DNA from: a virus
IMG/VR virus record: IMGVR_UViG_3300020048_000063
Coordinates: 34,804-98,803 of that record
Length of the DNA stretch: 64,000 bases
Direction: 5' to 3' (one strand)
A program made the position numbers and the translations under genes. Under the pieces are notes generated by a model. The model ran no database searches, was not told where the DNA came from, and saw only the letters and a list, made by a program, of their open reading frames with translations. Of the stretch, positions 28,430-51,335 are shown one piece after another (the stretch's first letter is position 1; the number at the start of each line of letters is the position of its first letter).

Positions 28430-29389
28430 ATGGATATATTTAAGAATAAAAATATTTTAATTATAGGTGACGTAATGCTAGATTCCTATTTATTCGGAAA
28501 TGTTGAAAGAATCTCACCTGAAGCACCAGTACCTATCGTAGACGTTATAATCAAACAAGATAAATTAGGCGGGGCGGCAAATGTTGCAGCAAACATAAAA
28601 AATTTAGGTGGTACACCTATATTGTGCTCTGTAATTGGCAAAGATCAAAAAGGTGAAATATTTTTATCATTATTGAAAAAATTAAAAATATCAACTGAGT
28701 ATATTTATCAATCAAAAAATAGAATAACAACAGATAAAACTAGAATCATAGGTAATAATCATCAGATGTTACGAATTGATGAAGAAATAAAGTCAGAATT
28801 AGGTAAAGATCAAACTCAATTTTTATCTATAATAGATTATGCTTTTCAAAGTGAAGAAATAGATTGTATATTATTTCAAGATTATGATAAAGGTATATTA
28901 AATGAAACTATTATCAATTATATAATTTCTAAAGCAGAATTATTAAAAATTCCAACGGTAGTAGATCCAAAAAACAAAAACTTCAATTTCTATAAAAATG
29001 TAACACTTTTTAAGCCCAATTTTAAAGAACTAAAAGAAGGTATAAATTTGAATTTAAATAGAAAAGAATTATTAGAAAATGGTGCTAAAATTTTACACTC
29101 AAAAGGAATAAAAATTGTATTCATAACTCTATCAGAAAGTGGTATTTTTATTTCATACAAAAAAGATGAAAAAACAATTAGTAAAATTATTCCTGGCGTT
29201 TCAAGAGAAATTGTAGATGTTTCAGGTGCTGGTGATACTGTTGCCGCTGTAGCATCTATGTTATTAAATTCTATAGATATAGAAGAAATTGCAAAAATAT
29301 CAAATTTAGCGGGTAGTATTGTGTGTGAAGAAGTTGGCGTTGTGCCTATTGATAAAGAAAAATTATTAAAAGAATATCTTATAAAATAG
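28430..29389 (+). CDS. D-glycero-D-manno-heptose-7-phosphate kinase (RfaE/HldE domain I, HldA-like)
   Basis: IGDVMLDSY, RISPEAPVP, LGGAANVA, DYDKG, PfkB motif DVSGAGDTV; no adenylyltransferase domain. Confidence 0.9.
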   Translation: MDIFKNKNILIIGDVMLDSYLFGNVERISPEAPVPIVDVIIKQDKLGGAANVAANIKNLGGTPILCSVIGKDQKGEIFLSLLKKLKISTEYIYQSKNRITTDKTRIIGNNHQMLRIDEEIKSELGKDQTQFLSIIDYAFQSEEIDCILFQDYDKGILNETIINYIISKAELLKIPTVVDPKNKNFNFYKNVTLFKPNFKELKEGINLNLNRKELLENGAKILHSKGIKIVFITLSESGIFISYKKDEKTISKIIPGVSREIVDVSGAGDTVAAVASMLLNSIDIEEIAKISNLAGSIVCEEVGVVPIDKEKLLKEYLIK

Positions 29390-30437
29390 TACCACTAGTT
29401 CCTCTTATCACTAAGTCTGGTAATATTTTATGAATATCTTTCGCTAATTTTTTTCTTGCAATCCAGAGTTTTGTTTTTACATAATCAGCAGAGTAATTGG
29501 TTCCTTGTTTGTTATTAAGTTCTTCTGCGATTTCTTCTGAACTTAATCCATCCATAGAAAGATTTAGAATATCTTTTTGATGTTCAGGTAGTTCATTAAA
29601 GCATTTCAATATAACTTCAACATTCTGTTCCTCTTGATCATCAAGGTCAATTGGATTTTCATAAATATTTGATAGGTCGCTATCAAAAAAGTCAGGAGTT
29701 AAATCTTCTTTACTATGTCTTTGTTTTTTAAATTTTGCAAGTGTAATATTTTTTGCAATTCTTATCAACCAAGTGCTCATTTTTGCTTTTGGTACATAAA
29801 TATCTTTTTGTCGCAATGCTACCTCTAAAGTGTCCTGAATAATATCCTTATAATTATTTGGCGATAGTCTTCTACAAAAATTGATAAATAATGGATCTTT
29901 TGCTGTTTTTTCTATTTCTTCTATTGTATTATTAACTCTTTTTTCTTTGGTAGTATTAGGAATACCTAATAATTTATTTAGCTTCCAAACTTGTCTTCTT
30001 CTTTTATTTTTCTTTTCGTATCCTTCTCTTTTTTTATCACGTCTTTCTTCAGGAGTAAACTTTTTAAATCTATTTAATTGAATATTAGTATCATATTTAC
30101 GATATTCTTTATAAATATTTCTAACATAATCTAAAGTTGGTTCAAGTTCTGGATGTTTTAATGAATGTACTCTTTTATTAATATTCATCTCATGCTTATT
30201 TATAAATACAGCAAAATTATAATTTAAACCAATTTCTTTTGCTAATTTAACAAGTTTTAGTTGTCTGAATGAAATTTCATCAGAATCTTCAAATTTTAAT
30301 CTTAATTCTTTAATATATTCTAAACCAAGTCTTATCATTTCCTCTTCACCTTTAAGGTTTCCACCTTTTCCAACTGGAGCGATGTCTGATATAGATTCTT
30401 GATTTTCTATTATAAACTCATAAAATTTTACTATCAT
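29379..30437 (-). CDS. Sigma-70 (ECF-like) factor with long N-terminal extension
   Basis: KDIIQDT, MSTWLIRIAKN, LPEHQKDILNLSMDGLSSEEIAEEL..VKTKLWIARKKL. Confidence 0.82.
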   Translation of the reverse strand: MIVKFYEFIIENQESISDIAPVGKGGNLKGEEEMIRLGLEYIKELRLKFEDSDEISFRQLKLVKLAKEIGLNYNFAVFINKHEMNINKRVHSLKHPELEPTLDYVRNIYKEYRKYDTNIQLNRFKKFTPEERRDKKREGYEKKNKRRRQVWKLNKLLGIPNTTKEKRVNNTIEEIEKTAKDPLFINFCRRLSPNNYKDIIQDTLEVALRQKDIYVPKAKMSTWLIRIAKNITLAKFKKQRHSKEDLTPDFFDSDLSNIYENPIDLDDQEEQNVEVILKCFNELPEHQKDILNLSMDGLSSEEIAEELNNKQGTNYSADYVKTKLWIARKKLAKDIHKILPDLVIRGTSGTIL

Positions 30438-30492
30438 ATTTGTTATATATTAAATTTTTAAACAATTTTTTATTATGTATATATAATAAAAC

Positions 30493-30777
30493 ATGACTAA
30501 AAAACCAAAAAAATTAGATGATGAATATAATGGTGAAGTAAATCCCATTGAAGATATTATAGACAAATTAAACTACTGTAGAGTAGATTATTATAAACTT
30601 TATAAAAAGGATTTTAAAGTTGCTTCAATTAGACTAAGACAAAATTTAGAATATGTTATTCAAACTGCCAAGCAAGTGAAACGAGATGCTCTAGCATATA
30701 GAAAACAAATAGAAGAAAGAGAAAGAATTGCTAAAGAAGAATATAGATTAGAAAATGAAGATAACTCAAATATCTAG
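30493..30777 (+). CDS. Possible divergent histone H1-like (Hc1-type) protein
   Basis: KLYKKDFKVASIRLRQNL resembles the KGNKAAGTRARK helix. Confidence 0.4.
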   Translation: MTKKPKKLDDEYNGEVNPIEDIIDKLNYCRVDYYKLYKKDFKVASIRLRQNLEYVIQTAKQVKRDALAYRKQIEERERIAKEEYRLENEDNSNI

Positions 30778-31479
30778 AATATATGCTTCATTCTTATTGA
30801 ATAAGCAATCACAAAAAGTTATTGATGTATCAGAATCACCGACAGTAAAAATCTGTTCAAATTTATTATGACCAACTATTTGATGAAAATTTGGTAATAA
30901 TAAATCTTTTTCCAGTTCAATCTTATCTGCCCAAAGGGGACCAGCATATCTATCTCCTCCATTTCTATAAAAAGATATATCACCTAAAATTCTTCTCCAA
31001 AGAGGATCCTTACTGACTTTATTTAAGATTATTGCTAAATTGCTTTTATCCTCTTTTAAACCAAATTGAACAAATAGTTCTATATGTTCTTGTAACCAAC
31101 CTTTAGTAACACCAGCATGAGTAAAAAGATAATTGTCTTTTTGTACTGCTATTTGAAAAAGATTTTGATTAAGTTGATAAATATCAAGAAGTTCTTGTAA
31201 ATAAATTCTTGATAAATTTCCAGTCTTAGTAAAATTAGGATAATACAAATATTGAGCATCATGATTACCAAGTAGTAAACTTATTTTTTCCGGATTTTTC
31301 TTTTTTAATTCAAGTATTTCTTTTAAATTTTCTATACTCTCATCTTCACTTATACGTTCTACTCTATATGGATCCGTGTAATCACCTAAAAATATAAAAT
31401 TTGAATTGTCAAAATCTTCTTTTATTATTTTTTTCCATTCCGTTCTACCATGCGTATCACCAATACTTACTATTTTCAT
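30766..31479 (-). CDS. Calcineurin-like metallophosphoesterase
   Basis: GDTHG, GDYTD, GNHD, THAG, QIVGH. Confidence 0.9.
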   Translation of the reverse strand: MKIVSIGDTHGRTEWKKIIKEDFDNSNFIFLGDYTDPYRVERISEDESIENLKEILELKKKNPEKISLLLGNHDAQYLYYPNFTKTGNLSRIYLQELLDIYQLNQNLFQIAVQKDNYLFTHAGVTKGWLQEHIELFVQFGLKEDKSNLAIILNKVSKDPLWRRILGDISFYRNGGDRYAGPLWADKIELEKDLLLPNFHQIVGHNKFEQIFTVGDSDTSITFCDCLFNKNEAYILDI

Positions 31480-31553
31480 ATTATTTCTTTTAAACTATTA
31501 ACGCAAATGTATATATAAATATTGGTATAAAAAAATAATATTTTAATTTAATT

Positions 31554-32009
31554 ATGAAATATTTCGCATATGGTAGTAACATGTCAGAAAATAATTTAAA
31601 AAATAGAGGTGTAATTTACTCAAAGAGACAAAAAGGTATATTAAAAGGTTATAAATTTATAATAAATAAAAAATCTTACAAAGATCCAACTATTGGTTTT
31701 GCTAATATTATTATAGATGAAAATTCTTTTGTTGAAGGTGTATTATATGATGTTAAGGAAACAGAAATACTCAAATTAGATAAATTTGAAGGATTTCCAA
31801 AACACTATTATAAATCAAAAGTTTATGTTGACATTGGAGGTTTTTTTGAAGAAGCAATCGTTTATATTGCACAAACTGAATGGACTTCTATAACAGAATT
31901 AAAAACAACAGAAGAATATAGAAATAAAATATTAGAAGGTAAAGATAGCATATCTGATGAATACTTCCAATTTCTAAATGAAAATATAAAAGTAGAAAAT
32001 GGAAATTGA
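31554..32009 (+). CDS. Gamma-glutamylcyclotransferase (AIG2-like)
   Basis: YFAYGSNM, VEGVLY, LDKFEG. Confidence 0.88.
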   Translation: MKYFAYGSNMSENNLKNRGVIYSKRQKGILKGYKFIINKKSYKDPTIGFANIIIDENSFVEGVLYDVKETEILKLDKFEGFPKHYYKSKVYVDIGGFFEEAIVYIAQTEWTSITELKTTEEYRNKILEGKDSISDEYFQFLNENIKVENGN

Positions 32010-32421
32010 AACTATAAATACAAATTTTACAATTAACTTAGATGGTATTGATGTTTATGTTACTGAAATTATAATCAGTAATGATATACAACATGGTAAT
32101 AGTAGATTTATGCAAGTTCCAACTAGACGAAGTATTTTAATTAAAGGTGAAATTTCTAATAAACAATACTACAATTTAGATAAATGGTTTAATGGAATAT
32201 TAAATAATTATAATGGATTTGGATCAAATTTTTATAAAAAAGATATAATTTTTAATACAGTTAAAATATTTGGAATTTTTCCAACTGATTATACTTTTAA
32301 TCAAAACGGTATAGATGTAAAATTTTCTGCTGATTACATTTCAGGAGATTTGCATCTATTTCGTTTAAAACAACTCCGAAAAGCAAAATTAGATAAGTTA
32401 AATGGGATTGCCACATTTTAG
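31999..32421 (+). CDS. Hypothetical protein
   Basis: C-terminal LRKAKLDKL motif. Confidence 0.7.
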   Translation: MEIETINTNFTINLDGIDVYVTEIIISNDIQHGNSRFMQVPTRRSILIKGEISNKQYYNLDKWFNGILNNYNGFGSNFYKKDIIFNTVKIFGIFPTDYTFNQNGIDVKFSADYISGDLHLFRLKQLRKAKLDKLNGIATF

Positions 32422-33591: not shown

Positions 33592-33596
33592 TTTAA

Positions 33597-33941
33597 TTAA
33601 ATAGGAAGACCTTGTAAATCAGATAGTTCAATAACGCTACCATTAAATGTAGTAGGTCCTAATTTTTGAATTGCGGATTTAACTTGATTTGAGCATTCTT
33701 CATAATTAATAAAACATACTGGTTTATCTGTTTCAAAATTAGATTGACGATAATATCCACCATTATTATCTGGTAATCCTAATATATCCTCAATACTAGA
33801 AGTACTACAATCCACAACTACACAATTAGAATCTATCCACGATTTAACTTGCATAGACGTTCTATCATATTCATTGAATATAATATATTTGTCATAACTA
33901 TCTGGTTTAGCAAAATTTTCAAATTTTTTGAGATGTTTCAT
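33597..33941 (-). CDS. Tagged hypothetical protein resembling an AAA ATPase fragment
   Basis: MKHLKKFENF N-terminus; EDILGLP and VKSAIQKL; late motif at 33959-33968. Confidence 0.6.
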   Translation of the reverse strand: MKHLKKFENFAKPDSYDKYIIFNEYDRTSMQVKSWIDSNCVVVDCSTSSIEDILGLPDNNGGYYRQSNFETDKPVCFINYEECSNQVKSAIQKLGPTTFNGSVIELSDLQGLPI

Positions 33942-34686: not shown

Positions 34687-35034
34687 ATGAGGCATATTAA
34701 AATATATGAAAATTATAAACCTAAGATACAAGAAGGTGATTATATAGTAATAAACATAAAAACAACATCTTATCAATTTGATGAATTTATAAATAATAAT
34801 ATAGGACAATTAATTTATATAGTACCATATAATACAGACTCATATTATATAAGATATGAAAACATACCAAAAATCATAAACCGCTGGTTTCATGGAAAAG
34901 ATAAATTATTACCAAGTGATCCAGACCTTGAAAATTCCAAATGTTTTAACATACATGCTATAAATATAATAGATTACGCAAAAGATAAAAGTGAATTAGA
35001 ATATATATTTGACTCTAAAAATTATAACTTATAA
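34687..35034 (+). CDS. Tagged hypothetical protein (MRHIKIYENY...KNYNL)
   Basis: Start reassigned to the ATG after late motif 34672-34681. Confidence 0.75.
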   Translation: MRHIKIYENYKPKIQEGDYIVINIKTTSYQFDEFINNNIGQLIYIVPYNTDSYYIRYENIPKIINRWFHGKDKLLPSDPDLENSKCFNIHAINIIDYAKDKSELEYIFDSKNYNL

Positions 35035-35056: not shown

Positions 35057-35638
35057 ATGATAAAAAAATATTCAGAATATATTAAAGAATCAATTACTAC
35101 TGATATTACTGGTTTATTAGATAGTATAAATGACAAAAAAGTTGATTTTTATGCCATACATTTAGCAAATGATGAATTTACTAGTATGCCAATAGAAACC
35201 TTATATGATCATGCAGAATTTAATAAGCAGTTGTTCAAGGAAAATCTTAAAAAAGGTGAAATGGAAACTACAATGGACATTGAGAATTTTCTTAGAAAAG
35301 ATATTGACATGAAATTTTTCTTTCTTTATAGTAGAAATGAGACCATATTAAATAATCCCAATTTTTTGATTATACAATATTATAAAGATAATAAGTGGTA
35401 TCCTATTGAAATATATTCTATTAAAGGTTCAATTGAAAAATTCTACGAAAAATTAACTGCAAAAACAGTTGAACTTACACTCAATAATATAACCTATAGA
35501 TATGAAACTTCAAATTCTGGTAATAATTGGTTATTAGTAGATAAAGATAAAAAAACTGATCAATTCAAAGAAAACTTAAATACAAATAGTATTAAAGAAT
35601 TAATTCGTTCAGGTGCTAAATTAAAAATTATTGATTAA
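35057..35638 (+). CDS. Hypothetical protein with CTS-like N-terminus
   Basis: MIKKYSEYIKES. Confidence 0.75.
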   Translation: MIKKYSEYIKESITTDITGLLDSINDKKVDFYAIHLANDEFTSMPIETLYDHAEFNKQLFKENLKKGEMETTMDIENFLRKDIDMKFFFLYSRNETILNNPNFLIIQYYKDNKWYPIEIYSIKGSIEKFYEKLTAKTVELTLNNITYRYETSNSGNNWLLVDKDKKTDQFKENLNTNSIKELIRSGAKLKIID

Positions 35639-36012
35639 TGAAAAATTATAAACTTTTTTGTGAAAATAAGGTTGATGGATATTTTTACAAAATTCATTTC
35701 AATGATAAAAATGTTGAAGATTATTTAATATGTGACATAAATATGTGTGCTAAAAGTTACAGAACATTTGATATAAAATTTTTTGATTTAGTTAAAAATA
35801 GAAAAATTCAAAAAATATTATTTGGTTTCTATTTTAAAGATACTACTATACTTGCTGATATATTAGTTGGAGGTAACAGTGAAAAAGAAGAAAAATTATT
35901 AACAAATCCAACACTTAGAATATTAGCAGAAAACGAAGAACTTTATATTGATCTTTTAGAAATATTTGATCCTGATCATATCAAAGTTGCAATGAGAAAA
36001 TATAACCTATAA
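35638..36012 (+). CDS. Tagged hypothetical protein (MKNYKLFCEN...RKYNL)
   Basis: Both terminal motifs present. Confidence 0.75.
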   Translation: MKNYKLFCENKVDGYFYKIHFNDKNVEDYLICDINMCAKSYRTFDIKFFDLVKNRKIQKILFGFYFKDTTILADILVGGNSEKEEKLLTNPTLRILAENEELYIDLLEIFDPDHIKVAMRKYNL

Positions 36013-36101: not shown

Positions 36102-36476
36102 ATGAAACACATAAAAACATTTGAATCATTTGAAGGAACTGAACAAATAGATGAATGGTTCGGTCAAAAATTTATCACAGGACATGATAAGGGAGAAAAA
36201 GAGAATGCTAAAGCTGTTCTTATGGGTTCTATTGAAGATGCTATAGAAGAAATGGAAAGTGATTCTGAATCATATGCACATGATGATACAGAAACTTTAA
36301 GACAAGATTTAATGACATTAGCGAAACAAGATAACTATAGAGGTAGAATTGAAAAAAGAACTTCCAGAGAAAGTGGACTTATAAATATAATTTATGTACC
36401 ACAAGCAACAGGTTTACAAAATTTAGGTTCTGGTGCAGCAGCAGGTACAGGAACAAAATTAATGGGTAGATATTAA
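36102..36476 (+). CDS. Hypothetical protein with CTS-like N-terminus
   Basis: MKHIKTFESF; Gly/Ala-rich C-terminus. Confidence 0.75.
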   Translation: MKHIKTFESFEGTEQIDEWFGQKFITGHDKGEKENAKAVLMGSIEDAIEEMESDSESYAHDDTETLRQDLMTLAKQDNYRGRIEKRTSRESGLINIIYVPQATGLQNLGSGAAAGTGTKLMGRY

Positions 36477-37839: not shown

Positions 37840-38529
37840 ATGATAGTTTATAAAAAAATAAATGAATATTTAGATAATAAAGAAAAAGGTGAATATCAAC
37901 AATTGATTGACTATACCAAAATTTCAGATAATTTAAGTAATGACCATATTAAAGAATTGTGTAAAGAAGCAGAAAATAACAATTTTTATTCAATTTGTAT
38001 TTTACCAAATGCTATATCAACCGCGCATTCATTTTTAAAAGGTGTCAAAATAGTTGCATTAATAGATTTTCCAAAGGGAGAAAGTGATATAAAACAAAAA
38101 ATAAGTGAAATTGATGAAACTATTGTAAATGGTGCAAGTGAAGTTGATGTTGTTATTAATTATAAACTTGTTAAAGATCCTGAAGAACATGAAAAGTTAG
38201 AAAAAGAGATAAGAGAATTAACAGAATATTGCCATCGTGAAAGTATAATAGTTAAAATTATAATTGAAATGGGAGCATTAAATTATCAAGAATTAGAAAC
38301 TATCTGTAAAATGTGTAGTGAAAACAATGCTGATTTTATAATGACTTCAACTGGAAAATTACCAAAAGACGATCCATTTGAAACAAAAGTTGAAAAGGTA
38401 AAATTTATGAGAAAAATATTACCAGATGAAATGAAAATTAAATTTTCTGGTGGTATTAGAACTATAGAACAAATCAAAGAATTAAAACCACTTGTTGATA
38501 GAATCGGCACAAGTGTAATTCCACAGTAA
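37840..38529 (+). CDS. deoC: Deoxyribose-phosphate aldolase-like protein (Schiff-base Lys replaced by Met)
   Basis: IDYT, DFPKG, GASEVDVVIN, VKIIIE, ADFIMTSTG, IKFSGGIRT, RIGTS. Confidence 0.85.
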   Translation: MIVYKKINEYLDNKEKGEYQQLIDYTKISDNLSNDHIKELCKEAENNNFYSICILPNAISTAHSFLKGVKIVALIDFPKGESDIKQKISEIDETIVNGASEVDVVINYKLVKDPEEHEKLEKEIRELTEYCHRESIIVKIIIEMGALNYQELETICKMCSENNADFIMTSTGKLPKDDPFETKVEKVKFMRKILPDEMKIKFSGGIRTIEQIKELKPLVDRIGTSVIPQ

Positions 38530-38531
38530 TT

Positions 38532-39014
38532 ATGAAATATTTAAAACTATTTGAAAGTAAAAGAGATGTAGTAGAGAATCAATTAATGAAAATAATTATA
38601 TTTGAAGAAAAAGGATTTGATAGTTATTTATATAAAAATTTTTATAAAGATAAATCTTTTGGAAACTTATATACTATTAATTTTGTAAATGATGATAATT
38701 TCACACCACTAACAGCGGCAGTTTATTATGAAAGAACTGAAATTTTAGAAAAACTTATAAAATTTGGTGCAAATGTAAATTATACAAATGAAAATGGTGA
38801 AACTCCATTAATGGTAGCAGCAACAGAAAACAACTTAGATATGTTAAGGATATTGACTGATAACGGTGCAGATTGGAATAAAAGAAATATAAGTGGAAAT
38901 GATTTTTTTGATTGTTTATTTGACGCTGAGTATGAACAGATACTTATAGAAGAATATCCGAAAAAATATGAAGATTATATTATAAAAAAAGATGCAAAAA
39001 AGTATAATTTATGA
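38532..39014 (+). CDS. Ankyrin repeat protein, dual-tagged (MKYLKLFES...KKYNL)
   Basis: TPLTAAV..LIKFGANVN, GETPLMVA..GADWN. Confidence 0.85.
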   Translation: MKYLKLFESKRDVVENQLMKIIIFEEKGFDSYLYKNFYKDKSFGNLYTINFVNDDNFTPLTAAVYYERTEILEKLIKFGANVNYTNENGETPLMVAATENNLDMLRILTDNGADWNKRNISGNDFFDCLFDAEYEQILIEEYPKKYEDYIIKKDAKKYNL

Positions 39015-39394
39015 AACATCTAAAATTATATGAAGAAACATTTCCAGTTCCAACAGAAGAAGAATTAGAAAAATATGATATCAAAGTTGGGAATTATGTC
39101 ATTGCAAATGAAAATTTTTTCAATTCAATTAGAAATCCATATTTTATTAATGAGTTGATTACTAAAGAAATAGGAAAAGTAGATAAAATTTTTATTAGCA
39201 ATAAGGGATATAGAAATGAGCAGGTTTATTGTAGTGTTCGGTATACTAATATACCAGAAAGTATTTTAAAGCATATTAGTAATAAACCAGCCACGTTTAT
39301 ACATTCTATTAGGATTGATGATCTGAGAAAAGTATCACCAGAGGAATTTGAAAAGTATCAATTATCAAAAGTCGCAAATAAATATAACTTGTAA
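39011..39394 (+). CDS. Tagged hypothetical protein (MKHLKLYEE...NKYNL)
   Basis: Both terminal motifs; similar in layout to 34687-35034. Confidence 0.75.
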   Translation: MKHLKLYEETFPVPTEEELEKYDIKVGNYVIANENFFNSIRNPYFINELITKEIGKVDKIFISNKGYRNEQVYCSVRYTNIPESILKHISNKPATFIHSIRIDDLRKVSPEEFEKYQLSKVANKYNL

Positions 39395-39422: not shown

Positions 39423-39761
39423 TTGATAACAATTTATAAAAGTTTTATGGAATCCAATCTTTCAAATGATTTAAAATCATATGCTGAATATCTTTTAGAT
39501 AAATATATAAAATCTCCGAACTCAACAGAAGATAGTGGATTTTATCTTAGACTAAAACAATTTTGTGAAGAAGGTAGAATCAAAGGAATACTCAGTAAAA
39601 ATGACAAGGTTACAACAAAAATTGATATATTAAATATATGTGGTAATGACTTAAGAAAAGTTTTAGGAGTTGACAATGATACATTTGAAGATTTTCAATT
39701 AAGAAGATATAATCCAAATGAATATAAATTGCAAAAGGATGTAAAAAAATATAATTTATGA
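39423..39761 (+). CDS. Hypothetical protein ending KKYNL (start TTG 39423 or ATG 39447)
   Basis: The TTG start gives a CTS-like MITIYKSFMES but overlaps an early promoter motif (TATCTTTG, 39418-39425). Confidence 0.65.
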   Translation: MITIYKSFMESNLSNDLKSYAEYLLDKYIKSPNSTEDSGFYLRLKQFCEEGRIKGILSKNDKVTTKIDILNICGNDLRKVLGVDNDTFEDFQLRRYNPNEYKLQKDVKKYNL

Positions 39762-40405
39762 TAACACATTTTAACAAATTTCTTATGAACGAATCACTTA
39801 ATCATTTTGATCTCAGTAAACTAGTCACAATTGTTAATATAAAACAGGATAATGAAGGTAACTGGATTTATACAACAAAAGATAATAGACAACTTACTTT
39901 ACCAAAAGAACAAGCAAATAAAATAACCTTAGTAGATAGTAAACTTGCAGATTTTGTAAATAATGGGCATCCAATTACAAAGTATTTTGAACTTGATTTA
40001 GATACTATCATTTATGCCGCAAATTTTGCTGTTGATGCAATAGCAATGAGAGAAGGTAGAGTATATTTAATTGAACGAAAAGATGGTCGCGGTTGGGCAA
40101 TTCCTGGTGGATTTATTGATGCCGGTGAAACACCAGAACAAGCAGCATTAAGGGAATTACAAGAAGAAACATTAGCAAAACCAAAAGATATTAAGAGTGT
40201 TGAATCATTAGGAATGTTTAAAACTAGTGATCCAAGAGAAATTGATTTTTTCTCTTTTATATTTGTTTTTCAAATTAAAGCTTCTGCTGAATTAAAATTT
40301 GCTGATGATGCTACAAATGGAAAATGGTTACTATTAAGTAGGGCAATTAAAAGCAAATTAGCTTTTCCACATCACAACGATTTTCTAAAAAAAGTTACTT
40401 ATTAA
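39758..40405 (+). CDS. NUDIX hydrolase with CTS-like N-terminus
   Basis: Nudix box GGFIDAGETPEQAALRELQEET, DPR, ADDA. Confidence 0.88.
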   Translation: MITHFNKFLMNESLNHFDLSKLVTIVNIKQDNEGNWIYTTKDNRQLTLPKEQANKITLVDSKLADFVNNGHPITKYFELDLDTIIYAANFAVDAIAMREGRVYLIERKDGRGWAIPGGFIDAGETPEQAALRELQEETLAKPKDIKSVESLGMFKTSDPREIDFFSFIFVFQIKASAELKFADDATNGKWLLLSRAIKSKLAFPHHNDFLKKVTY

Positions 40406-41075
40406 TTTTCTCTTTTTCCCTTTTCATTGGTAATGGTGGAGATATTTTAAATTCTCTATTTAAATATCTTCTAAATTCATTTTCAACATAATAAGGTGGT
40501 ACAACTTTATTATCATTCTCTTTTTCCATTTTAGTTGCTAACATATATGCAAAACTTATAATATGTTCTCTTCTCACCATATTTATTAATCCTTTTTCTA
40601 CAGCAAAGGATTTATAAAACCAATCATCATAAAAATGCACAAACTCACCCTCACTAATATCAATTGCTTTTATTATTATACCTGACATAAAACTTTTATA
40701 ATCAACTTTCTTCACAAGCATAATAGGTACTAAAATTTTTATTAATGCCCTTGAACCACCTAAAAATTGTGAAACTACCCATAAAGGAAGATATATAAAA
40801 GCTAATGCTAAAGGAATTGCTCTATGAAGAAACTTAAAAATACCTTGTAAATATTCTCTATTTTCCTTAAATTTTATAGCATCTGAGTGAAGTGCCTTTA
40901 ATACTCCGAATGTTAGTTTTTTACCACTTGCTAATTGATTATATAATTTCCCTTGCTTTGCTACTTCTTTAATCTTTTTTAATTCTTCATCACTTTTAAA
41001 ACTAAAAATATTGGAAATATCAATAGAAGTAAAGTCATATATATCATCAACAAATTCATAAAGTTTTATAATCAT
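40395..41075 (-). CDS. Hypothetical protein with hydrophobic hairpin
   Basis: MIIKLYEF start; late motif at 41081-41090. Confidence 0.7.
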   Translation of the reverse strand: MIIKLYEFVDDIYDFTSIDISNIFSFKSDEELKKIKEVAKQGKLYNQLASGKKLTFGVLKALHSDAIKFKENREYLQGIFKFLHRAIPLALAFIYLPLWVVSQFLGGSRALIKILVPIMLVKKVDYKSFMSGIIIKAIDISEGEFVHFYDDWFYKSFAVEKGLINMVRREHIISFAYMLATKMEKENDNKVVPPYYVENEFRRYLNREFKISPPLPMKREKEKINK

Positions 41076-43538: not shown

Positions 43539-43984
43539 TAACTAGATCTTCTTTTTTTAATCATCTCCTGAATATATTGATCAGCAGGCAATTTAATATC
43601 TGGGTCTTTTCTATTAACCAATTCTTCTTTCGTATTATCTTTTATACCTTCTTTTTCATTTATTTCTTTAACAATAGATGCTAAATATGTTTCTGGACTT
43701 ACTTTTGAATCTTCATTTGTATAAACTAATCCATATATACTTTCATCATTGAAAATATAAAATTCATTATTAGGCAAAGTAAAATCCTGATAAAACATTA
43801 ATTTACCTATTGTACCATATGTTAATATTTGTTTACCTGTCATATTTAAATATTTTAACATAAAAGCATCTTTTATATGAATTTTTTCTTCCTTCAAAGA
43901 AATTAAATTTATACCTAAATCCATTTTGAATATAGGTATTTTTCTAAATATATTTAACATTTGGGTGTTTGCTACTACTATCAT
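43538..43984 (-). CDS. Hypothetical protein
   Basis: 148 aa, in a late operon. Confidence 0.7.
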   Translation of the reverse strand: MIVVANTQMLNIFRKIPIFKMDLGINLISLKEEKIHIKDAFMLKYLNMTGKQILTYGTIGKLMFYQDFTLPNNEFYIFNDESIYGLVYTNEDSKVSPETYLASIVKEINEKEGIKDNTKEELVNRKDPDIKLPADQYIQEMIKKRRSS

Positions 43985-44550
43985 TGTTCGTGAATATCAT
44001 CTTTTAAATCATTCTCATCTACACCAGTATCATCAGATTTATCTTTTAATTGACCTAATTTATCAATCATAAAATCCTCTTTAATATCCTCAACTTTTAC
44101 TTCCTCTACCAATTCTCCTTTTTCTTTATTATTCTCATCAAATTGATGAATTTTTAAAAGAACTTTATTAATTTCTAAATTTTTACCCTCGGCTGGGGGA
44201 GTTGCGGCTGGAGCTTCACCCTGACCTTGAGCAGGAGGTTGTGTTTGTTGAGTTTGTGCTTGTGCTTCATCACCTTTCATTTCATCAAGTCTTATCATAA
44301 AAATAACTCTATATCTCATTGATGTTCCTTCTTCTTCTTCACCTTCTTTTATTGGTTCTGTAAAATTAAATATTAGGAATTTTTCCATTGGATTATAATT
44401 AGAAATTTGAATATCTCCATCCAATTCACAACCCTGAGCACCTAATGAACCATCTGTAAACCATTTTTCAATTTGTGCTTCTAATTCCTTAAAAAAAACT
44501 GAAATTTTATAATCAGCTGATTCAACGTATTCTTCAAATAATTTCCTCAT
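43981..44550 (-). CDS. Hypothetical acidic protein with CTS-like N-terminus
   Basis: MRKLFEEYVES; Q/P/A-rich linker; late motif at 44572-44581. Confidence 0.75.
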   Translation of the reverse strand: MRKLFEEYVESADYKISVFFKELEAQIEKWFTDGSLGAQGCELDGDIQISNYNPMEKFLIFNFTEPIKEGEEEEGTSMRYRVIFMIRLDEMKGDEAQAQTQQTQPPAQGQGEAPAATPPAEGKNLEINKVLLKIHQFDENNKEKGELVEEVKVEDIKEDFMIDKLGQLKDKSDDTGVDENDLKDDIHEQ

Positions 44551-44625
44551 AATTGTTAATTAATTTTACTCTATATATAAAAATCATGTTCATTAAAATC
44601 AAAAATGAAAATTAATATATATTAT

Positions 44626-45342
44626 ATGAAAATTTTAAAAGAATCAGAAGTCTCATCAGGAAATGCGAGCGGAAAAGCAGGTGTAGCATCACTTCCGTTC
44701 AATAAAGGATATTATTCTTCTGGTAACAATGGATCACCAGGTATAGAATTTACTCCAAAAGGTGAACCAAGTTTCAAAACATACAAAAGTATGAAGCATT
44801 CAAAAAAGAATGTTAAAGAAAAAAGAGAAAAAATGAAAAAATTTAGAGAATTCGCAAAAGAATCAGTAAACTACGAAAATCTAGAAATTAGAGGAATCAA
44901 TTTCATTGATGATAATGAAGGTTATGTTAAAATAGAAATGGATGGTAAACAAAAAATGGAGCATTTTAGTATTAATCACGCTGGGTATGTTCATTTTCAA
45001 CTTTTTCATCCAGAACAAAATTATTATCAATTAGTTCAATATGTATATGAACAAATGCCAGAATGCAATTTAAAAACTAAAGTTCTTGATAATTATGAAG
45101 AAGTTTTTCAGTTAGAAACATTAACCGAAGAAGCTTCTGCAACTATGGGTAATACAGGTGGTATGGGTGCTGTTGTGTCGGCACAACCATCAAGTACACC
45201 AGGTGATGTTGCAGGTGGAACAAAAGGTTCTGGTGATATTGGACAAACACTTGGTACTTATACTAAACCAGGAATAAAAATGAAAAAGGATAAAAAGAAA
45301 AAAAGAAAAATAGAATCTTTTGATAATTTTAAAATAAAATAA
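44626..45342 (+). CDS. Hypothetical protein with repeated CTS-like motifs
   Basis: Start reassigned to follow late motif 44612-44621; MKILKES, MKKFREFAKES, KIESFDNF. Confidence 0.7.
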   Translation: MKILKESEVSSGNASGKAGVASLPFNKGYYSSGNNGSPGIEFTPKGEPSFKTYKSMKHSKKNVKEKREKMKKFREFAKESVNYENLEIRGINFIDDNEGYVKIEMDGKQKMEHFSINHAGYVHFQLFHPEQNYYQLVQYVYEQMPECNLKTKVLDNYEEVFQLETLTEEASATMGNTGGMGAVVSAQPSSTPGDVAGGTKGSGDIGQTLGTYTKPGIKMKKDKKKKRKIESFDNFKIK

Positions 45343-45351: not shown

Positions 45352-46101
45352 ATGAAAATAGAAAGATTTAATCAAATAAATGAGTCTTCTCATAACGAAT
45401 TTTTGAATCATTATAGTGATGATATACAGAAATCTATCATTTTATTAGTAAAATTAAAAAATTTTTTCATTGAAGCTGAACATAACGATGAAAATATTAC
45501 TGATGAACTTGGTGAACTTGGTGAAAAAATAGAAAATAGACTTAGTGTTTATGATAAAAATGTACCATCAAAAATAGATGAATGGATTTATGATACTCCA
45601 ACACCAGATGAAATTGTTGAATTCGCAATAAGAAACCAATATAAATGGGGAACTGAACCGCAAATGGTATTATACGCAATTGAAGATTATGCAACAGAAT
45701 GTGGAATATATCCTGATGATGAGGATGATATTGATGAAAATGAGAATGAAGATGAATTTTATGAAGGCTCTTTTCAATTTGATAAAGAAGAAGTTGATGA
45801 ACCAAAAAATGAGAATATTGAATTATTTGAAAATTTTGAAACCAGTTATACTTATGAATGTAGTGGTTCACCTAGTCCAACATTTAGAGTTAAAGCAGAC
45901 TTTTTTGAATTTATGGCTAATCATGGATTTAAACACACCACATTAACCAAAAAAACTAACATGCTAATTGTGGAAGATAAAGATATGGGTACTTTAAAAT
46001 GTCAAAAAGCACAAAAATATGGTGTACCAATTTATACATATAGAGAAGCAAAGAAAAAGGTTATAGCATTAGCAGAAGACATGGAAAAATATAATTTATA
46101 A
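45352..46101 (+). CDS. Dual-tagged protein with C-terminal BRCT-like domain
   Basis: MKIERFNQINES...LTKKTNMLIV..KCQKAQKYGVPIYTY...EKYNL. Confidence 0.75.
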   Translation: MKIERFNQINESSHNEFLNHYSDDIQKSIILLVKLKNFFIEAEHNDENITDELGELGEKIENRLSVYDKNVPSKIDEWIYDTPTPDEIVEFAIRNQYKWGTEPQMVLYAIEDYATECGIYPDDEDDIDENENEDEFYEGSFQFDKEEVDEPKNENIELFENFETSYTYECSGSPSPTFRVKADFFEFMANHGFKHTTLTKKTNMLIVEDKDMGTLKCQKAQKYGVPIYTYREAKKKVIALAEDMEKYNL

Positions 46102-46104: not shown

Positions 46105-46473
46105 GTGAGATACATAAAAACATACGAAAAATTTTTCATAAAAAAAGTCTGGAACAAAATACTAGATCCAGAAAGTGATTTAAAAGAAATTGAGGCATCT
46201 TGGAATATGCATGAAATCCCTGTGTTACAAAAATATGGAAAAATAACTGAAGATACATTTGAATATAACTCTGTTATGAGTAATCTTTCAATAAAAATTA
46301 AAAAAATATATGTGGAAGAAGCATTTGGATATACACCAGCAACATTTAAGGTAAATGTTAGCAATGATAGAGGTATATATCGTAAAACATTTACAGATTT
46401 TAATGATGTAATAAAACTTATGGAAAAATTGATTCCAAAAGAAGAAATAGACGCAAATAAATATAATCTATAA
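46105..46473 (+). CDS. Tagged hypothetical protein (MRYIKTYEKF...NKYNL)
   Basis: GTG start; both terminal motifs. Confidence 0.75.
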   Translation: MRYIKTYEKFFIKKVWNKILDPESDLKEIEASWNMHEIPVLQKYGKITEDTFEYNSVMSNLSIKIKKIYVEEAFGYTPATFKVNVSNDRGIYRKTFTDFNDVIKLMEKLIPKEEIDANKYNL

Positions 46474-46523: not shown

Positions 46524-46829
46524 ATGGAAAAAGTAGATAAAGTTACATATGAAATGTCGGGTCCTCCACCGAAATGGTTATGGTATCATAAAGCAGACTT
46601 TGAGAGTGATATGTTGAAATGGGGATATTCTCATACCACATTGAATAAAAATACTGATATGTTAATTGTAGAATCAAAAGATTTAGGTACATTAAAATGT
46701 CAGAAAGCAGAAAAATACGGTATACCTATATACACTTATAAAGAAGCATTTGATAGAAAAGAAAAATTATACACAAGAGTAATTAGGAAAAAAAGATTAG
46801 ATAATATAAATAAAAACAGAGAAGAATAA
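46524..46829 (+). CDS. Stand-alone BRCT-like domain protein
   Basis: Paralog of the 45352 C-terminus; LigA-type KTDxLIV..K..KAxxLGIPI pattern; ends IRKKRLDNI. Confidence 0.75.
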   Translation: MEKVDKVTYEMSGPPPKWLWYHKADFESDMLKWGYSHTTLNKNTDMLIVESKDLGTLKCQKAEKYGIPIYTYKEAFDRKEKLYTRVIRKKRLDNINKNREE

Positions 46830-46908: not shown

Positions 46909-47910
46909 GTGGATTACAATAAAAATTATTATCAAGAATTAGGATTAGATAAAAATGCAACTGAGGACGATATAAAGAAAACATATAGAAAATTAGCACA
47001 TAAACATCATCCCGACAAAAATCAGGGTAATAAAGATTCAGAAGCATTATTTCAAAGAATAAATGAAGCAAATTCTGTTCTGTCGGATGCTAAGTCTAAA
47101 CAAGAATATGATCAAAGAAGTCCACATGGAAAAAGCTATTCACCGAGTCCTTTTGGTGGATTTGAATTTAGTGGTATGGGAGATATTTTTAACCAATTTT
47201 TTGGTGGTGGATTTGATCCATTTGGTGGATTCAATCCTTTCAGAAGAGAGGAATTTATTGAAAATTTAGATATCAATCTAAATGTTAATATCAATCTTAA
47301 ACAGATTTATCTTAATGATCATCTCATTTTAAAATTTAAAAAATATGTATCATGTCCAGATTGTAATGGTACTGGATTTGATAAAAATAGTCATTCTGAT
47401 ACTTGTGAAATATGTAATGGTTCTGGTATTGATAATGGTAGAACTTGTACCTATTGTAAAGGTGATGGTAAAATATACACAGGAACTTGTAAAACATGTA
47501 GTGGTGAAAAAATTATTTTGAAAGATGCAGAAGTAACAATGCAAAATGTATCACAAATAAGAAACAATCTAAGAAATATACATAGAGGATTTGGTCACCA
47601 ATCAAAATATTATAGGGAAAAAGTAGGTAGTTTAATATTAAATATTATTGTTGATAGAAATGATAAATATCAGATAGTAAATAATGTTGAATTACACCAA
47701 ACTTTAGATATACATTTTCAAGATGCTATTGATGGAAAAGAAATTTTATATTCACATATTGATGATACATCACTAAAAATTAAATTACCAACAAAAAGTA
47801 AAAATAACGATATAATTAGAGTAAAAGATAAAGGCTTATTAATAAATGATAAGCAACGAAGCGATTTATATATAAAAATAAATATTATAATTGATTATGA
47901 TAGAATTTGA
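46909..47910 (+). CDS. dnaJ: DnaJ chaperone
   Basis: J-domain HPD, G/F region, four CxxCxGxx Zn motifs, C-terminal domain. Confidence 0.92.
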   Translation: MDYNKNYYQELGLDKNATEDDIKKTYRKLAHKHHPDKNQGNKDSEALFQRINEANSVLSDAKSKQEYDQRSPHGKSYSPSPFGGFEFSGMGDIFNQFFGGGFDPFGGFNPFRREEFIENLDINLNVNINLKQIYLNDHLILKFKKYVSCPDCNGTGFDKNSHSDTCEICNGSGIDNGRTCTYCKGDGKIYTGTCKTCSGEKIILKDAEVTMQNVSQIRNNLRNIHRGFGHQSKYYREKVGSLILNIIVDRNDKYQIVNNVELHQTLDIHFQDAIDGKEILYSHIDDTSLKIKLPTKSKNNDIIRVKDKGLLINDKQRSDLYIKINIIIDYDRI

Positions 47911-48184
47911 TTTTTATTCCTATGATGAAGATAAAGATAAAATAAAAATATATTCAGAAGAAGTTCAGAATTATTTTAGTTCCACATATTATATTGATAT
48001 TGAAACAGTTGATTTTGATGAAAATCAAAATATTGTTTTGTTTATTGAACATTCAAGAAACATAATAAATCCTTCAGAGTTAGAAAAAACACTTTTAGAA
48101 AATTTCAAACATCTAAATGATGTTGAGGTTAGAAATATGAAAATTTTATTGACTTTTGATAGTAAAGAAATTGAAATTTGTTAA
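47891..48184 (+). CDS. Hypothetical protein
   Basis: 97 aa ORF (start may be the second Met). Confidence 0.6.
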   Translation: MIMIEFDFYSYDEDKDKIKIYSEEVQNYFSSTYYIDIETVDFDENQNIVLFIEHSRNIINPSELEKTLLENFKHLNDVEVRNMKILLTFDSKEIEIC

Positions 48185-48474
48185 ATTTCATCAAAAGTTT
48201 TTCTTAATTCATTTAACTCTAAATTAAGTGTATTAACATAATATTCTAAAATATCCTGAACAAACACTACTGTAGCAATTTCATCAGGATTTAGAACCAC
48301 CTCATTTATTACAAATGGATTTGTACTGGATATTCCAGATGATGTAGATGTATCTGATGCGATAATTCTATATGATTTTTTATTCATTATCTCTCGTAAA
48401 TCAAATATAGTTTTTTCTAGTTTATCAATTCTATCAACCAAACCTGCCGCAATATCAAAATCTTTTCTTTCCAT
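48181..48474 (-). CDS. Hypothetical protein
   Basis: 97 aa ORF. Confidence 0.65.
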   Translation of the reverse strand: MERKDFDIAAGLVDRIDKLEKTIFDLREIMNKKSYRIIASDTSTSSGISSTNPFVINEVVLNPDEIATVVFVQDILEYYVNTLNLELNELRKTFDEI

Positions 48475-48496
48475 TTTTATTTTTTATTTTATATAT

Positions 48497-48895
48497 TTAA
48501 ATTTCTTCGTTCTCTCCATTTTCTTTCAAATATTCACATTTATAACTCTGACATATTGCTGGTCTAATATCATATATTGAACAGAATCTTAAATTATTAT
48601 TGTAGAAAATACAGGATTTTTTATTAGTATCAAAATTTAATCTAATTGCAGGATAACTACTTGGTTCTTGCCAAACTGATCTATCTGGAAAAATATTCTT
48701 ACCTTCTTCATAATATATGAAAACACTTTCTTTACTAACTTCTTTTCCAATCTTTTCTGATAATCTTGCTACAAATTCATCAGTATCTAAATGTGGACCA
48801 ATTATCCAATCTCTATTTTCAATAGAACAACAACTTCCATGATAATTATCTTGACCCCAACATAAAAAACTACATATATTACAATTTTTACCCAT
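48497..48895 (-). CDS. YkgJ/CxxCxxCC-family Zn/Fe-S cluster protein
   Basis: CNICS..C..GSCC, CIFY, CSIYDIRPAICQSYKC. Confidence 0.8.
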   Translation of the reverse strand: MGKNCNICSFLCWGQDNYHGSCCSIENRDWIIGPHLDTDEFVARLSEKIGKEVSKESVFIYYEEGKNIFPDRSVWQEPSSYPAIRLNFDTNKKSCIFYNNNLRFCSIYDIRPAICQSYKCEYLKENGENEEI

Positions 48896-48932
48896 TATTA
48901 TTTTTATTTTTTATATTATATAAAATAAAAAC

Positions 48933-48962
48933 AAAAAAGACTGAATAAATTCAGTCTTTTTT
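48933..48962. terminator. Intrinsic terminator
   Basis: AAAAAAGACTGAAT-aa-ATTCAGTCTTTTTT. Confidence 0.8.
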
Positions 48963-48981
48963 AATTAAAAAAATTGTTATA

Positions 48982-50145
48982 TTATATTCTAACTTTTTCA
49001 CCACCAGAATCTCTAATAATATTTCTTAGTTGTTCTGTAGCACATTTATCAAAGGCAGATTTAGTCATACTTAAAACGTTATTTGAACTATCCCATTTAC
49101 ATTTTTGTTTTTCACCTTTTATAAAATTAAGAACTTTTGTAGGTTTTTCTTCAAATCCCCAAGCTAACATCTCTTCTTTCTTAGGCTCAGAAACCATACC
49201 TTCTGTTGATTTTAAATTGATTTTAAAAGTCATTGTATATACTGGTTTATCTTCTGTTCCAGTATTTTTCTTTGATCTATATTTTAAAGCAACTCTATAT
49301 TTTCTTTTCTTCAAAACATTTTCACTATATTCCATAAACAAATCTTGATCATAATCCATTTTGAAATCATTCTTATCTACTTCAAATTCTACATATTGTG
49401 GTTCTCCATTTTGATTGCCTGCAAATTTAATATTTTTACCATAAGCAAACATTTCACTTATAATTTTCTTAACTTCTTTTTGAACTTCACCTGATACTGG
49501 TGCGGCTGCTTCTTTTTTTGCTTCTAAAAAGAGTCCGAAATTTTGTATTTTTCTCATATTTTTTGTATTATTTTTACCTTCAAAAGTTGTATCTGAAGTA
49601 TAGCCTTTATATAATGATTTTTTATTAGGTATATCTGATGATGGTGTGTCATCTTTAGATGTTTCTACTCTATTTTGTCTATCATCTGACCATTTTTTTA
49701 TAGTTGACCAATATATATTACTATATGGTTTTTCTTCTCTTATATAAGGATATTCTTCCTTTAATTTTTTAAGTTCTTCTTTTATTTCATCTTCACTTAA
49801 AAGTAAAATAGATTCCATTTTATCCTTAAATTCTTGTGGTGTAATATTAAATAATTTAGAACGATATGATGATTCCATGTCAGGAGAATCCTCACCATTT
49901 ATAATAGCCTGTGTTATATCTTGCTCATGTGAATCTGCGTTTAGATATTTTTGATGCCATTTTTTAATAACTTCCCAATACGCTTTCTTATATGGTTCTT
50001 CTTCCCTAACAAAAGGATATTCTTTTTTCAATTTTGCTAATGCTCTTGACGCATTTTCTAAATCTTTATCAATAATCTTTTCTATTGAATCTAATTTAAT
50101 ATGAAAATCTTTTAGTGATAATTCACTTAATCTATCTCTTTCCAT
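48982..50145 (-). CDS. Hypothetical protein with internal duplication and internal CTS-like start
   Basis: Two LKxEYPxxREExPY...YWxxIKKW repeats; MRKIQNFGLFLEA at ATG 49557. Confidence 0.75.
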   Translation of the reverse strand: MERDRLSELSLKDFHIKLDSIEKIIDKDLENASRALAKLKKEYPFVREEEPYKKAYWEVIKKWHQKYLNADSHEQDITQAIINGEDSPDMESSYRSKLFNITPQEFKDKMESILLLSEDEIKEELKKLKEEYPYIREEKPYSNIYWSTIKKWSDDRQNRVETSKDDTPSSDIPNKKSLYKGYTSDTTFEGKNNTKNMRKIQNFGLFLEAKKEAAAPVSGEVQKEVKKIISEMFAYGKNIKFAGNQNGEPQYVEFEVDKNDFKMDYDQDLFMEYSENVLKKRKYRVALKYRSKKNTGTEDKPVYTMTFKINLKSTEGMVSEPKKEEMLAWGFEEKPTKVLNFIKGEKQKCKWDSSNNVLSMTKSAFDKCATEQLRNIIRDSGGEKVRI

Positions 50146-50165
50146 GTTATTTTATTATTTTTATT

Positions 50166-51335
50166 TTAAACTTCATAAACTTTAGTTTTATAAGGTTGTA
50201 TAATTTCTTCGTTTCTATCTGGATAATTTACTCTACTTAAAATATATCTTAGAGCATTTAATTGTCCCATCTTCTTATCATTCATATCAATAACACACCA
50301 AGGCGATTTTTTAGTTGATGTTTTAGCAAACATTTGTTCCTTATAATAAGTAAACAAATCATATTTATCAACTGCTTTAGCATCATTAGGACTAAATTTC
50401 CAATATTTAATTGGATGTGCTTTTCTTAAATTAAATCTAAATTCTTGAGTTTCTTTATCAATTGAAAACCATAATTTTATATAAATTACACCTTCATCTA
50501 TTAATTCTTTTTCAAACGGAACAACATCTTTCATAAATTGTCTATATTGTTCTTCGGTACAATATCCATTTACCGGATCATTTACTGCTCTATTATACCA
50601 AGAACGATCAAAGAATTTTAAATGACCAGTTGTAGGTAATGCTTTTACATAACGATGAAACCAATTTCTTTTTTGATATTTTGTTGGTATATCAAACCAA
50701 TCATGACTTACAATTTTTTCTGGTGTATTTTCTTCAATCAAACGAATAAAAGAACCTTTACCTGCTGAATCTCTACCATCTAATGTTACAAGTACTCTTT
50801 GATTTGTATCTTTTATCCATTCAATCATTTTTTGTAATTCAATAAATAATGCCTTATTTTCATTTTCAAAAACTTTTTTAGAAATTTTTCTTTGTTTCTT
50901 TTTAGTATCTTTCAAAGTTTTCAGTTTAGCAAATTTATCACTAAGATTGTATTTAGAATAATCGTTATTTATTTTTAGAAAAATTCTAGGTATTTCTGAT
51001 AAATACTCATCAAAATAACTTTCTGCTATATCTGGATTTAATTTTTGTTTAACCCTAAGAGTTTTGAAAAATGAATCTAATTCCAATAAAAGATATAATT
51101 CTTCACCAAATTCTTCTTTAGCCTTGATTTTTAATTCTCTAACATCTGTTCCCTTATTAAAAAGTTTTCTATATTCTCCAATAAATTTAATTACACTTTT
51201 TTTATCAACATCAGTATAATATTTAGTTTCTGGTTCAGATTCTACTTCAACTTTCGGTGTGTACGTTGTTTTTAAAGGGTATGTAGATGTGGAAGTCCAA
51301 TTTTCAAAGGTTTTTAAATAATCCATATACTTCAT
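50166..51335 (-). CDS. ppk2: Polyphosphate kinase 2 with N-terminal extension
   Basis: DGRDSAGKG, FDRSWYNRA, KLWFSI, WKFSPND; start reassigned to MKYMDYLKTFENW. Confidence 0.9.
   Translation of the reverse strand: MKYMDYLKTFENWTSTSTYPLKTTYTPKVEVESEPETKYYTDVDKKSVIKFIGEYRKLFNKGTDVRELKIKAKEEFGEELYLLLELDSFFKTLRVKQKLNPDIAESYFDEYLSEIPRIFLKINNDYSKYNLSDKFAKLKTLKDTKKKQRKISKKVFENENKALFIELQKMIEWIKDTNQRVLVTLDGRDSAGKGSFIRLIEENTPEKIVSHDWFDIPTKYQKRNWFHRYVKALPTTGHLKFFDRSWYNRAVNDPVNGYCTEEQYRQFMKDVVPFEKELIDEGVIYIKLWFSIDKETQEFRFNLRKAHPIKYWKFSPNDAKAVDKYDLFTYYKEQMFAKTSTKKSPWCVIDMNDKKMGQLNALRYILSRVNYPDRNEEIIQPYKTKVYEV

Follow-up and report, generated by a model that had tools for sequence, protein, structure and literature searches.

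A short N-terminal leader on proteins of an uncultured megaphage resembles the capsid-targeting sequence of phage T4

The window analysed here is a 64,000-nucleotide stretch of the virus record IMGVR_UViG_3300020048_000063, corresponding to the last 64 kb of a single 98.8-kb contig (G+C content 28%), and our subject is a short N-terminal peptide, referred to below as the leader, that opens many of its predicted proteins and resembles the capsid-targeting sequence (CTS) of T4 internal proteins. A first-pass annotation of this DNA had listed sixteen such N termini between positions 29379 and 51335. All sixteen are present, one of them with a GTG start, and Pfam confirms the sigma-70 (regions 2 and 4), ankyrin, polyphosphate kinase 2 (PPK2), Nudix and DeoC assignments made at the time; the interval does hold members of the set, but the set extends beyond it, with six more strict leaders (defined below) in the other 35 kb of the contig. 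The source is an uncultured megaphage with a genome of about 700 kb, a size that follows from the completeness of 14% assigned by CheckV to the IMG/VR record. Proteins of the contig match the uncultured phages LR7565xx, with genomes of 634-735 kb; a 735-kb genome has been given as the largest phage genome (PMC7162821). Two public relatives were used throughout: G001, a 235-kb fragment syntenic with the contig (61% identity in a 588-residue protein), and G005, which is 675 kb long and 98% complete (41-45% identity in the 588-residue protein).

Leaders were sorted with two patterns. The strict motif is M-[KRD]-[HY]-[LIM]-[KQ]-x-[FY]-E, with the short form MK[HY][LI]Kx[FY]E, and a looser, long class, [FY]xx[FY][ILV]xE[SN], resembles T4's MKTYQEFIAE. 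Many of the genes also have a promoter-like T[AT]ATATATA motif upstream or encode a C-terminal tag, [KN][YF]N[LI], as the last residues of the protein. Seven of the sixteen genes have a strict leader. On the minus strand these are a 114-residue open reading frame (ORF) without a Pfam family at 33597-33941 (MKHLKKFENF; no C-terminal tag; promoter-like motif 16 nucleotides upstream) and PPK2 at 50166-51326 (386 residues), where MDYLKTFENW starts at the second ATG of the ORF and the PPK2 domain at residue 148. The plus-strand members are a 115-residue protein of an SH3-like family that we call VGDY (34687-35034; MRHIKIYENY, ending NYNL), a 124-residue ORF at 36102-36476 (MKHIKTFESF; two promoter-like motifs upstream), a 160-residue ankyrin-repeat protein at 38532-39014 (MKYLKLFES, ending KKYNL), a second VGDY-family protein of 127 residues at 39011-39394 (MKHLKLYEE, ending NKYNL) and a 122-residue ORF at 46105-46473 whose leader, (M)RYIKTYEKF, begins with GTG and which ends NKYNL.

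Another six leaders are CTS-like. The 352-residue sigma-70-like protein (29379-30437, minus strand), in which Pfam finds regions 2 and 4, begins with MIVKFYEFIIEN and has a promoter-like motif 5 nucleotides upstream; a smaller paralog at 5545-6177, 27% identical to it over 106 residues, has no leader. At 35057-35638 (plus) a 193-residue ORF starts with MIKKYSEYIKES, and its G001 ortholog keeps MIKKYLQYITES. The Nudix hydrolase at 39758-40405 (plus) has the leader MITHFNKFLMNES and a domain starting at residue 91. MIIKLYEFVDD opens a 226-residue ORF at 40395-41075 (minus; promoter-like motif 4 nucleotides upstream), MRKLFEEYVES a 189-residue ORF at 43981-44550 (minus; MKKLFEEYVES in the G001 ortholog) and MKIERFNQINES a 249-residue ORF at 45352-46101 (plus) that ends EKYNL. 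Two plus-strand leaders are degenerate: MKNYKLFCEN on a 124-residue ORF at 35638-36012, which ends KYNL, and MKILKES on a modular 238-residue protein at 44626-45342, whose G001 ortholog reads MKYLKAFES. The remaining one, MIVYKKINEY on the DeoC-family aldolase (37840-38529, plus; DeoC domain at residues 29-209), matches neither class and is at best a weak leader. A 104-residue ORF at 39447-39761 (plus) ends KKYNL and has the C-terminal tag without the leader.

A six-frame scan of the 98.8-kb contig finds the strict seven-residue pattern 13 times, each time directly after a start codon, and the ORFs behind these matches are 95-386 residues long; inside proteins (28,616 positions) there is no match. 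The looser class gives eight N-terminal matches against about 0.18 expected, an enrichment of about 40-fold. A position matrix separates the strict members, with scores of at least 26.5, from everything else, at most 13.5, although it was trained on those same members. With a degenerate DNA pattern, five related records yield 4-19 forward matches each and none for the reversed pattern. Chance or base composition as the cause is thus rejected by the reversed-pattern, positional and expected-count statistics. The tagged share is about 28 of the 132 ORFs on the contig, with estimates running from about 10-15% of genes up to one in six; in G001 there are 17 strict leaders and many variants among 389 ORFs.

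The leader, 8-13 residues at the extreme N terminus, is conserved at the level of the peptide. In related records synonymous codons vary freely (AAA/AAG, CAT/CAC, TTT/TTC, TAT/TAC, GAA/GAG), as do the Leu and Ile codons (TTA/TTG/CTA/CTT/ATT/ATA); in 125 of the 135 pattern matches listed, from at least 120 IMG/VR loci, the pattern sits at the first ATG of its ORF; and the DNA upstream of that ATG is not conserved across public viral contigs. Together these three observations identify a peptide starting at the initiator Met as the conserved unit. In T4-type phages, promoter-stem-loop cassettes are a model for recombinational shuffling; the nucleotide-level conservation of such a cassette, non-coding flanks included, was not found here.

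In the sigma-like, ankyrin, PPK2, Nudix and DeoC proteins, and in an AAA_28 NTPase (Pfam) that carries the leader outside the window on the same contig, the known domain begins well past the leader. When the bodies are trimmed at both ends, almost no mutual similarity remains among the tagged proteins, although iterative searches join several small carriers, including 34687 and 39011, into one divergent SH3-like family. Most of the tagged bodies are unrelated, but these small ones are not. An AlphaFold2 model of the 34687 protein has a mean predicted local distance difference test (pLDDT) score of 85.5 and depicts a small barrel of the SH3 type accompanied by helices; pLDDT exceeds 90 in the body, the first ten residues average 52, and residues 1-18 have no secondary structure. 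As the leader is unstructured in this model, it is predicted to behave as a flexible extension outside the fold. Foldseek returned just generic small-barrel matches for the model (E >0.03), and a single-sequence AlphaFold2 run on the ankyrin ORF gave no usable model (pLDDT 39). VGDY proteins are 90-130 residues long, share a (K)VGDYV motif and an SH3-like barrel, evolve fast and lie in tandem arrays of megaphage contigs; besides 34687-35034 and 39011-39394, members occur at L001:16318-16623 on the contig and at many G001 loci. The 249-residue protein of 45352-46101 also shares a segment with a neighbour: over 60 residues its C-terminal part matches the beginning of an untagged 101-residue ORF at 46524-46829 with 63% identity, a sign of module shuffling.

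The C-terminal tag is found on 16 ORFs of the contig (34687-46473 in the window; L001/L002 in the rest) and on 42 of the 389 ORFs of G001. Most of the ORFs with this tag have the leader as well, and nine of the 13 strict-leader ORFs bear both tags. Because it is present also where no tagged gene follows, we regard it as a protein feature and not a gene junction.

The leader is not found on other genes of the same region (PfkB kinase, metallophosphatase, GGACT, GT25-like, DNA methylase, amidase and RtcB), nor on the DnaB-like, UvsX-like, ribonucleotide reductase, baseplate and tail genes of the contig. The first-pass annotation had suggested checking whether replication genes lack the motif, and the DnaB-like, UvsX-like and reductase genes indeed do. 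It had also seen a TTWATATATA motif ahead of the leader genes or their operons, and this too is borne out: T[AT]ATATATA occurs 56 times against about 16 expected (examples in the window are at 20600, 30452, 34673, 44613, 55556 and 59090) and lies 3-25 nucleotides ahead of most leader-gene starts or of their operons, a spacing by which some transcripts may be nearly leaderless. The motif also precedes the operon for baseplate hub and lysozyme, the gene for a 1239-residue protein and an Ig-domain structural gene, and it is not ahead of the replication operon. This placement fits co-expression of the tagged proteins with virion genes, as judged from motif positions.

As the contig has no head genes, the relatives were examined for a link to the head. 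Queried with the capsid protein and the protease from a T4-like contig that bears leaders, G005 yields a gp23-like capsid protein (36-42% identity) and an 801-residue gp21-like protease fused to a scaffold-like part (41% identity over the protease). This protease in turn retrieved 80 head-module loci, 76 of them parsable; on a representative, L166, the PHROGs families for portal, head maturation protease, major head protein and gp4-like head-closure protein all have hits. In these modules the leader is found on conserved genes at three positions. At the first of them, ahead of the portal gene, the protein begins M[KR]H[LI][RK]KFE[ED]L (MKHLRKFEELDYS) in about 24 of 59 loci, a gene of 127-130 codons directly after the capsid gene has a leader in about 40 of 60, and so does the third gene downstream of the capsid gene in about 40 of 54. 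The genes for capsid protein, portal and protease are themselves without the motif in these loci. Orthologs of the post-capsid gene exchange short forms (MKHLKQFESKK, MKYLKYFESKK) for long ones (MIKNFNSFNESKK, MRIKKYKSFNESK), and so we treat short and long leaders as variants of one thing. Of the proteins encoded in these loci, the gp4-like head-closure protein alone has a tag-like C terminus, LKKFN[LV] (L166:446-970(-), L173:293-820(-), L229).

The same association is seen in contigs of 140-170 kb, where three of four that bear leaders encode a Pfam S77 protease. Here the small gene between portal and protease, at the position of T4 genes 67/68, starts MKHIKLFEEFVSE, MKTIKTFEQFINS or MKIYNTFESFIKEA; a gene between protease and capsid protein, at the position of gene 22, starts MQYVKLFEQFINEA; and the capsid proteins themselves start MA[NT]LINE[AS]. 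Among cultured phages, a blastn search with a 42-nucleotide consensus gave mostly noise and led to the T4-like Chryseobacterium phage MA9V-2, in which the gene immediately before the annotated protease gene starts MKTFTYFINEA and the gp4-like protein ends LKQFNI; T4 gp4 does not end so. For comparison, T4 IPII and IPIII begin MKTYQEFIAEA. The strict pattern is found neither in MA9V-2 nor in Tenacibaculum phage pT24, and a tblastn search of cultured phages with the leader-bearing protein from the gp67 position gave no match. The relatives of our phage, then, have T4-type head genes, and the leader marks genes of their head modules.

A more direct connection to the capsid comes from ORF 44626-45342 in the window. 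Its product is built like a polyprotein and consists, in this order, of leader, a Gly/Ser-rich module (SSGNASGKAG...FTP..EPSFKTYKSMKHSKKN), an internal leader-like MKKFREFAKES, an inserted domain, LTEEA, a capsid-protein-like stretch and a Lys-rich tail. The capsid-like stretch, 39 residues long (ATMGNTGGMGAVVSAQPSSTPGDVAGGTKGSGDIGQTL; residues 179-216 counted from an upstream ATG at 44605, about 45139-45252), matches the capsid protein of G005-type phages at 67% identity, in the N-terminal arm that follows the capsid protein's invariant I-N-E-N. The family has 123 members in public data, many of about 150 residues and some fused to other domains. In the 86 members that have the stretch, a leader copy, MKKFEEF[IL]xED, almost always stands directly before it, whether internally or at the very N terminus, for example MKKFEEFLKED↓ATATAGNTGGMGAV and MKHIKEFKLFEE↓GTAMATMGN (arrows here and below mark the end of the leader or, in T4, the cleavage site). 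In a profile-profile comparison of these proteins with capsid N termini (hhalign), the leader end [IL]-x-E-D falls on capsid residues I41-N42-E43-N44 (probability 98.1%, E 8.6e-14), so that the leader takes the place of the end of the capsid propeptide region. On this alignment the leader end is homologous in position to the capsid INEN, and we take this positional homology to be our strongest in silico argument for a role of the leader in docking and cleavage during head assembly. In T4 the N-terminal propeptide region of the capsid protein touches the core and is cut off after a Glu. The conserved body of the 44626 family starts right after the leader Glu (..FE↓SEVSSGN), which suggests a module boundary at a putative cleavage point.

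We therefore favour, as a probable but not a settled explanation, a leader of the T4 type that targets proteins to the prohead and is cleaved there. The likeness to the T4 CTS pointed out in the first-pass annotation holds and is strengthened by the head modules of relatives and by the INEN alignment. The further step taken there, that the proteins are packaged cargo, gains from the CTS likeness and the head-gene links but loses from a short form without the T4 residue at P3 (three before the Glu) and from a window without head genes. Since head-assembly genes of relatives carry the tag and the tag aligns with the end of the capsid propeptide, a sizeable and diverse set of proteins is probably packed into the head of this phage; packaging and injection, we infer, may extend to the sigma-like factor, PPK2 and the Nudix protein. 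Under this explanation the tagged proteins would be expressed from promoters of the TATATATA type, as would tail and baseplate genes, and the flexible leader would dock them on the scaffold and protease core of the prohead much as the end of the capsid propeptide would dock. The gp21-like prohead protease would then cut after the leader Glu, leaving the bodies (SH3-like proteins, ankyrin, PPK2, Nudix, AAA_28 NTPase and the sigma-like factor) in the head with the DNA, and at least some of them would enter the host together with it.

The T4 CTS is textbook knowledge, and what is seen here shares much with it. In both cases a short N-terminal peptide is carried by the products of gene arrays, proteins that are dissimilar and evolve fast. 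The long form seen here has hydrophobic-x-Glu at its end, and both a gp23-like capsid protein and a gp21-like protease are found in relatives of the phage. T4 MKTYQEFIAE↓A compares with MIVKFYEFIIE↓N and MIKKYSEYIKE↓S here and with MKHIKLFEQFINE↓A in T4-like relatives, and the long form fits the T4 (L/I)-x-E site (FIIE↓N, YIKE↓S, LMNE↓S, QINE↓S). The T4 internal head proteins all join the core via a CTS of 10-20 residues that gp21 removes (PMC5694885; PMC3012670), the carriers being IPI, IPII, IPIII and Alt according to Mullaney and Black 1996 as cited in the same two papers. Unlike in T4, with its four carriers, the tag here is on roughly one gene in six, among them the genes for a sigma-like factor, PPK2, a Nudix hydrolase and an ankyrin protein. 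The short form ends at Glu8, with no conserved hydrophobic residue at P3; K[YF]N[LI] is found at the C terminus of many carriers; the protease of relatives is fused to scaffold; and the system is known from sequence alone. The comparison with the propeptide (Delta) of T4 gp23 is divided: the leader end aligns with INEN of the relatives' gp23-like capsid protein, and the sequence that follows aligns with its N-terminal arm, whereas MAFFT does not align the T4 maturation site LTE↓A with INEN, and the cleavage site of the clade's capsid protein is only putative.

Other giant phages offer a looser parallel. In phiKZ, 201phi2-1 and SPN3US, packed proteins have propeptides that are cut after Glu by a gp21-related protease and are thought to be prohead-targeting (PMC5694885). 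These phages likewise have N-terminal sequences on head and ejection proteins and pack dozens of proteins (about 50 head proteins are mentioned for SPN3US in PMC7411985). However, their propeptides are mostly longer than 100 residues, have no shared consensus and are cut at (S/A/G)-x-E, whereas the leader is a shared consensus of 8-13 residues whose P3 is not Ser, Ala or Gly; we thus rejected a phiKZ-like long propeptide. Encapsulin cargo-loading peptides are likewise short and terminal, and they bring unrelated enzymes into a shell with the HK97 fold; their sequences are unrelated to ours, and the likeness is an analogy only, one that may extend to the C-terminal K[YF]N[LI] tag.

Several observations weigh against a prohead-targeting leader. 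With no head genes in the window or its contig, the link to a protease rests on relatives at 41-61% identity. In the short form P3 is K, T, L or I, where the T4 rule L/I-x-E wants a hydrophobic residue, and nothing is conserved past residue 10, so that cleavage there is uncertain. The head-module loci are mutually related, and their counts are therefore not independent events. Pfam S77 scans gave no match in our contig or in five megaphage records, where a closer protease query found the G005 gene, and the head module of the cultured Tenacibaculum phage PTm1, which has a related capsid protein, is without the leader. Tagged proteins do not differ from the rest in isoelectric point and show no charge bias. 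The C-terminal tag has no T4 counterpart and lies outside the model. Finally, the implied cargo, at 10-15% of genes, far exceeds that of any studied phage.

The best surviving alternative, which we consider distinctly less probable, is that some machinery other than the prohead reads the leader as an address or recognition tag: a chaperone, a degron protease, a modifying enzyme or a phage-made compartment could do so, with the head genes one use among several. A flexible extension on varied bodies would suit such a tag, as would a short form that ignores the T4 P3 rule, and the second tag at the other end of the protein, K[YF]N[LI], suggests a recognition system absent from T4. However, among the neighbours checked in the window no gene for a modifying enzyme or dedicated partner adjoins the tagged genes, and both the INEN positional homology and the presence of leaders around portal, protease and capsid protein point to the head. 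Less probable again is that the motif has no sorting role and is simply an N terminus conserved within expanded families of paralogs, serving structure or oligomerisation and carried to a few other genes by recombination. Several strict-leader ORFs (34687, 39011 and others upstream) do belong to the VGDY family and share their C-terminal end too, and the tagged genes stand in tandem arrays with fast turnover between G000 and G001; but most trimmed bodies are dissimilar, ankyrin, PPK2, Nudix, sigma-like and AAA_28 proteins carry the leader as well, the modelled leader is detached from the fold, and it is found on conserved, single-copy head-module genes. An element acting at the nucleic-acid level, either a recombinational cassette junction or a translation-start enhancer for late mRNAs with short leaders, could account for promoter-like motifs as close as 3-7 nucleotides to several start codons (giving nearly leaderless mRNAs), for the KYNL-stop/ATGA junctions that recur in arrays and for the gene content shuffled between relatives, yet it is largely refuted by the varying codons and is highly improbable given also the Leu/Ile and Phe/Tyr swaps, the one GTG start, the unconserved DNA before the ATG, the absence of the motif from the most highly expressed late genes (capsid protein, portal and protease) and its internal occurrence in proteins before the capsid-like stretch.

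Returning to the prohead-targeting leader, the fullest version of this explanation, which we put forward tentatively and rate as doubtful, is that the clade of phages of about 700 kb addresses on the order of a hundred proteins (sigma factor, PPK2, Nudix and ankyrin among them) into the capsid by a two-ended tag. The N-terminal part would be a copy of the capsid protein's propeptide end, and the gp21-like protease would cleave it; the C-terminal part, possibly a second docking signal, resembles the C terminus of the gp4-like protein; and the virion would deliver a takeover kit that includes a transcription factor for the phage's own TATATATA promoters. In the literature we found nothing on a CTS-type tag on dozens of megaphage proteins, on the short form, on a paired C-terminal tag or on the capsid-propeptide match; the phrase 'capsid targeting' was not found in the megaphage and huge-phage literature searched, and the motif strings were in no paper found.

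Huge phages carry extra genes by the hundred, and no member of this clade has been cultured. If the leader marks packaged proteins, the injected cargo of each megaphage could be read from its genome sequence alone. The match between leader end and INEN suggests that CTS-type tags arose, and work, as copies of the docking and cleavage segment of the capsid propeptide. A short portable tag could also serve as a tool for loading proteins into large capsids, a use to which the T4 CTS has already been put (PMC3012670).

Two further features lie in the window beyond the sixteen leader genes. The paralogous ORFs at 53643-55526 and 55637-56671, which share 47% identity over 327 residues, are divergently transcribed; both have promoter-like motifs, and Ig-like domains have been added to one of them. 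Between 59135 and 63202 there are two large ORFs (946 and 407 residues) with many internal repeats that match between them at 47-59% identity, and the contig end has repeats with a 9-base, collagen-like period. The repeat ORFs probably encode fibres.

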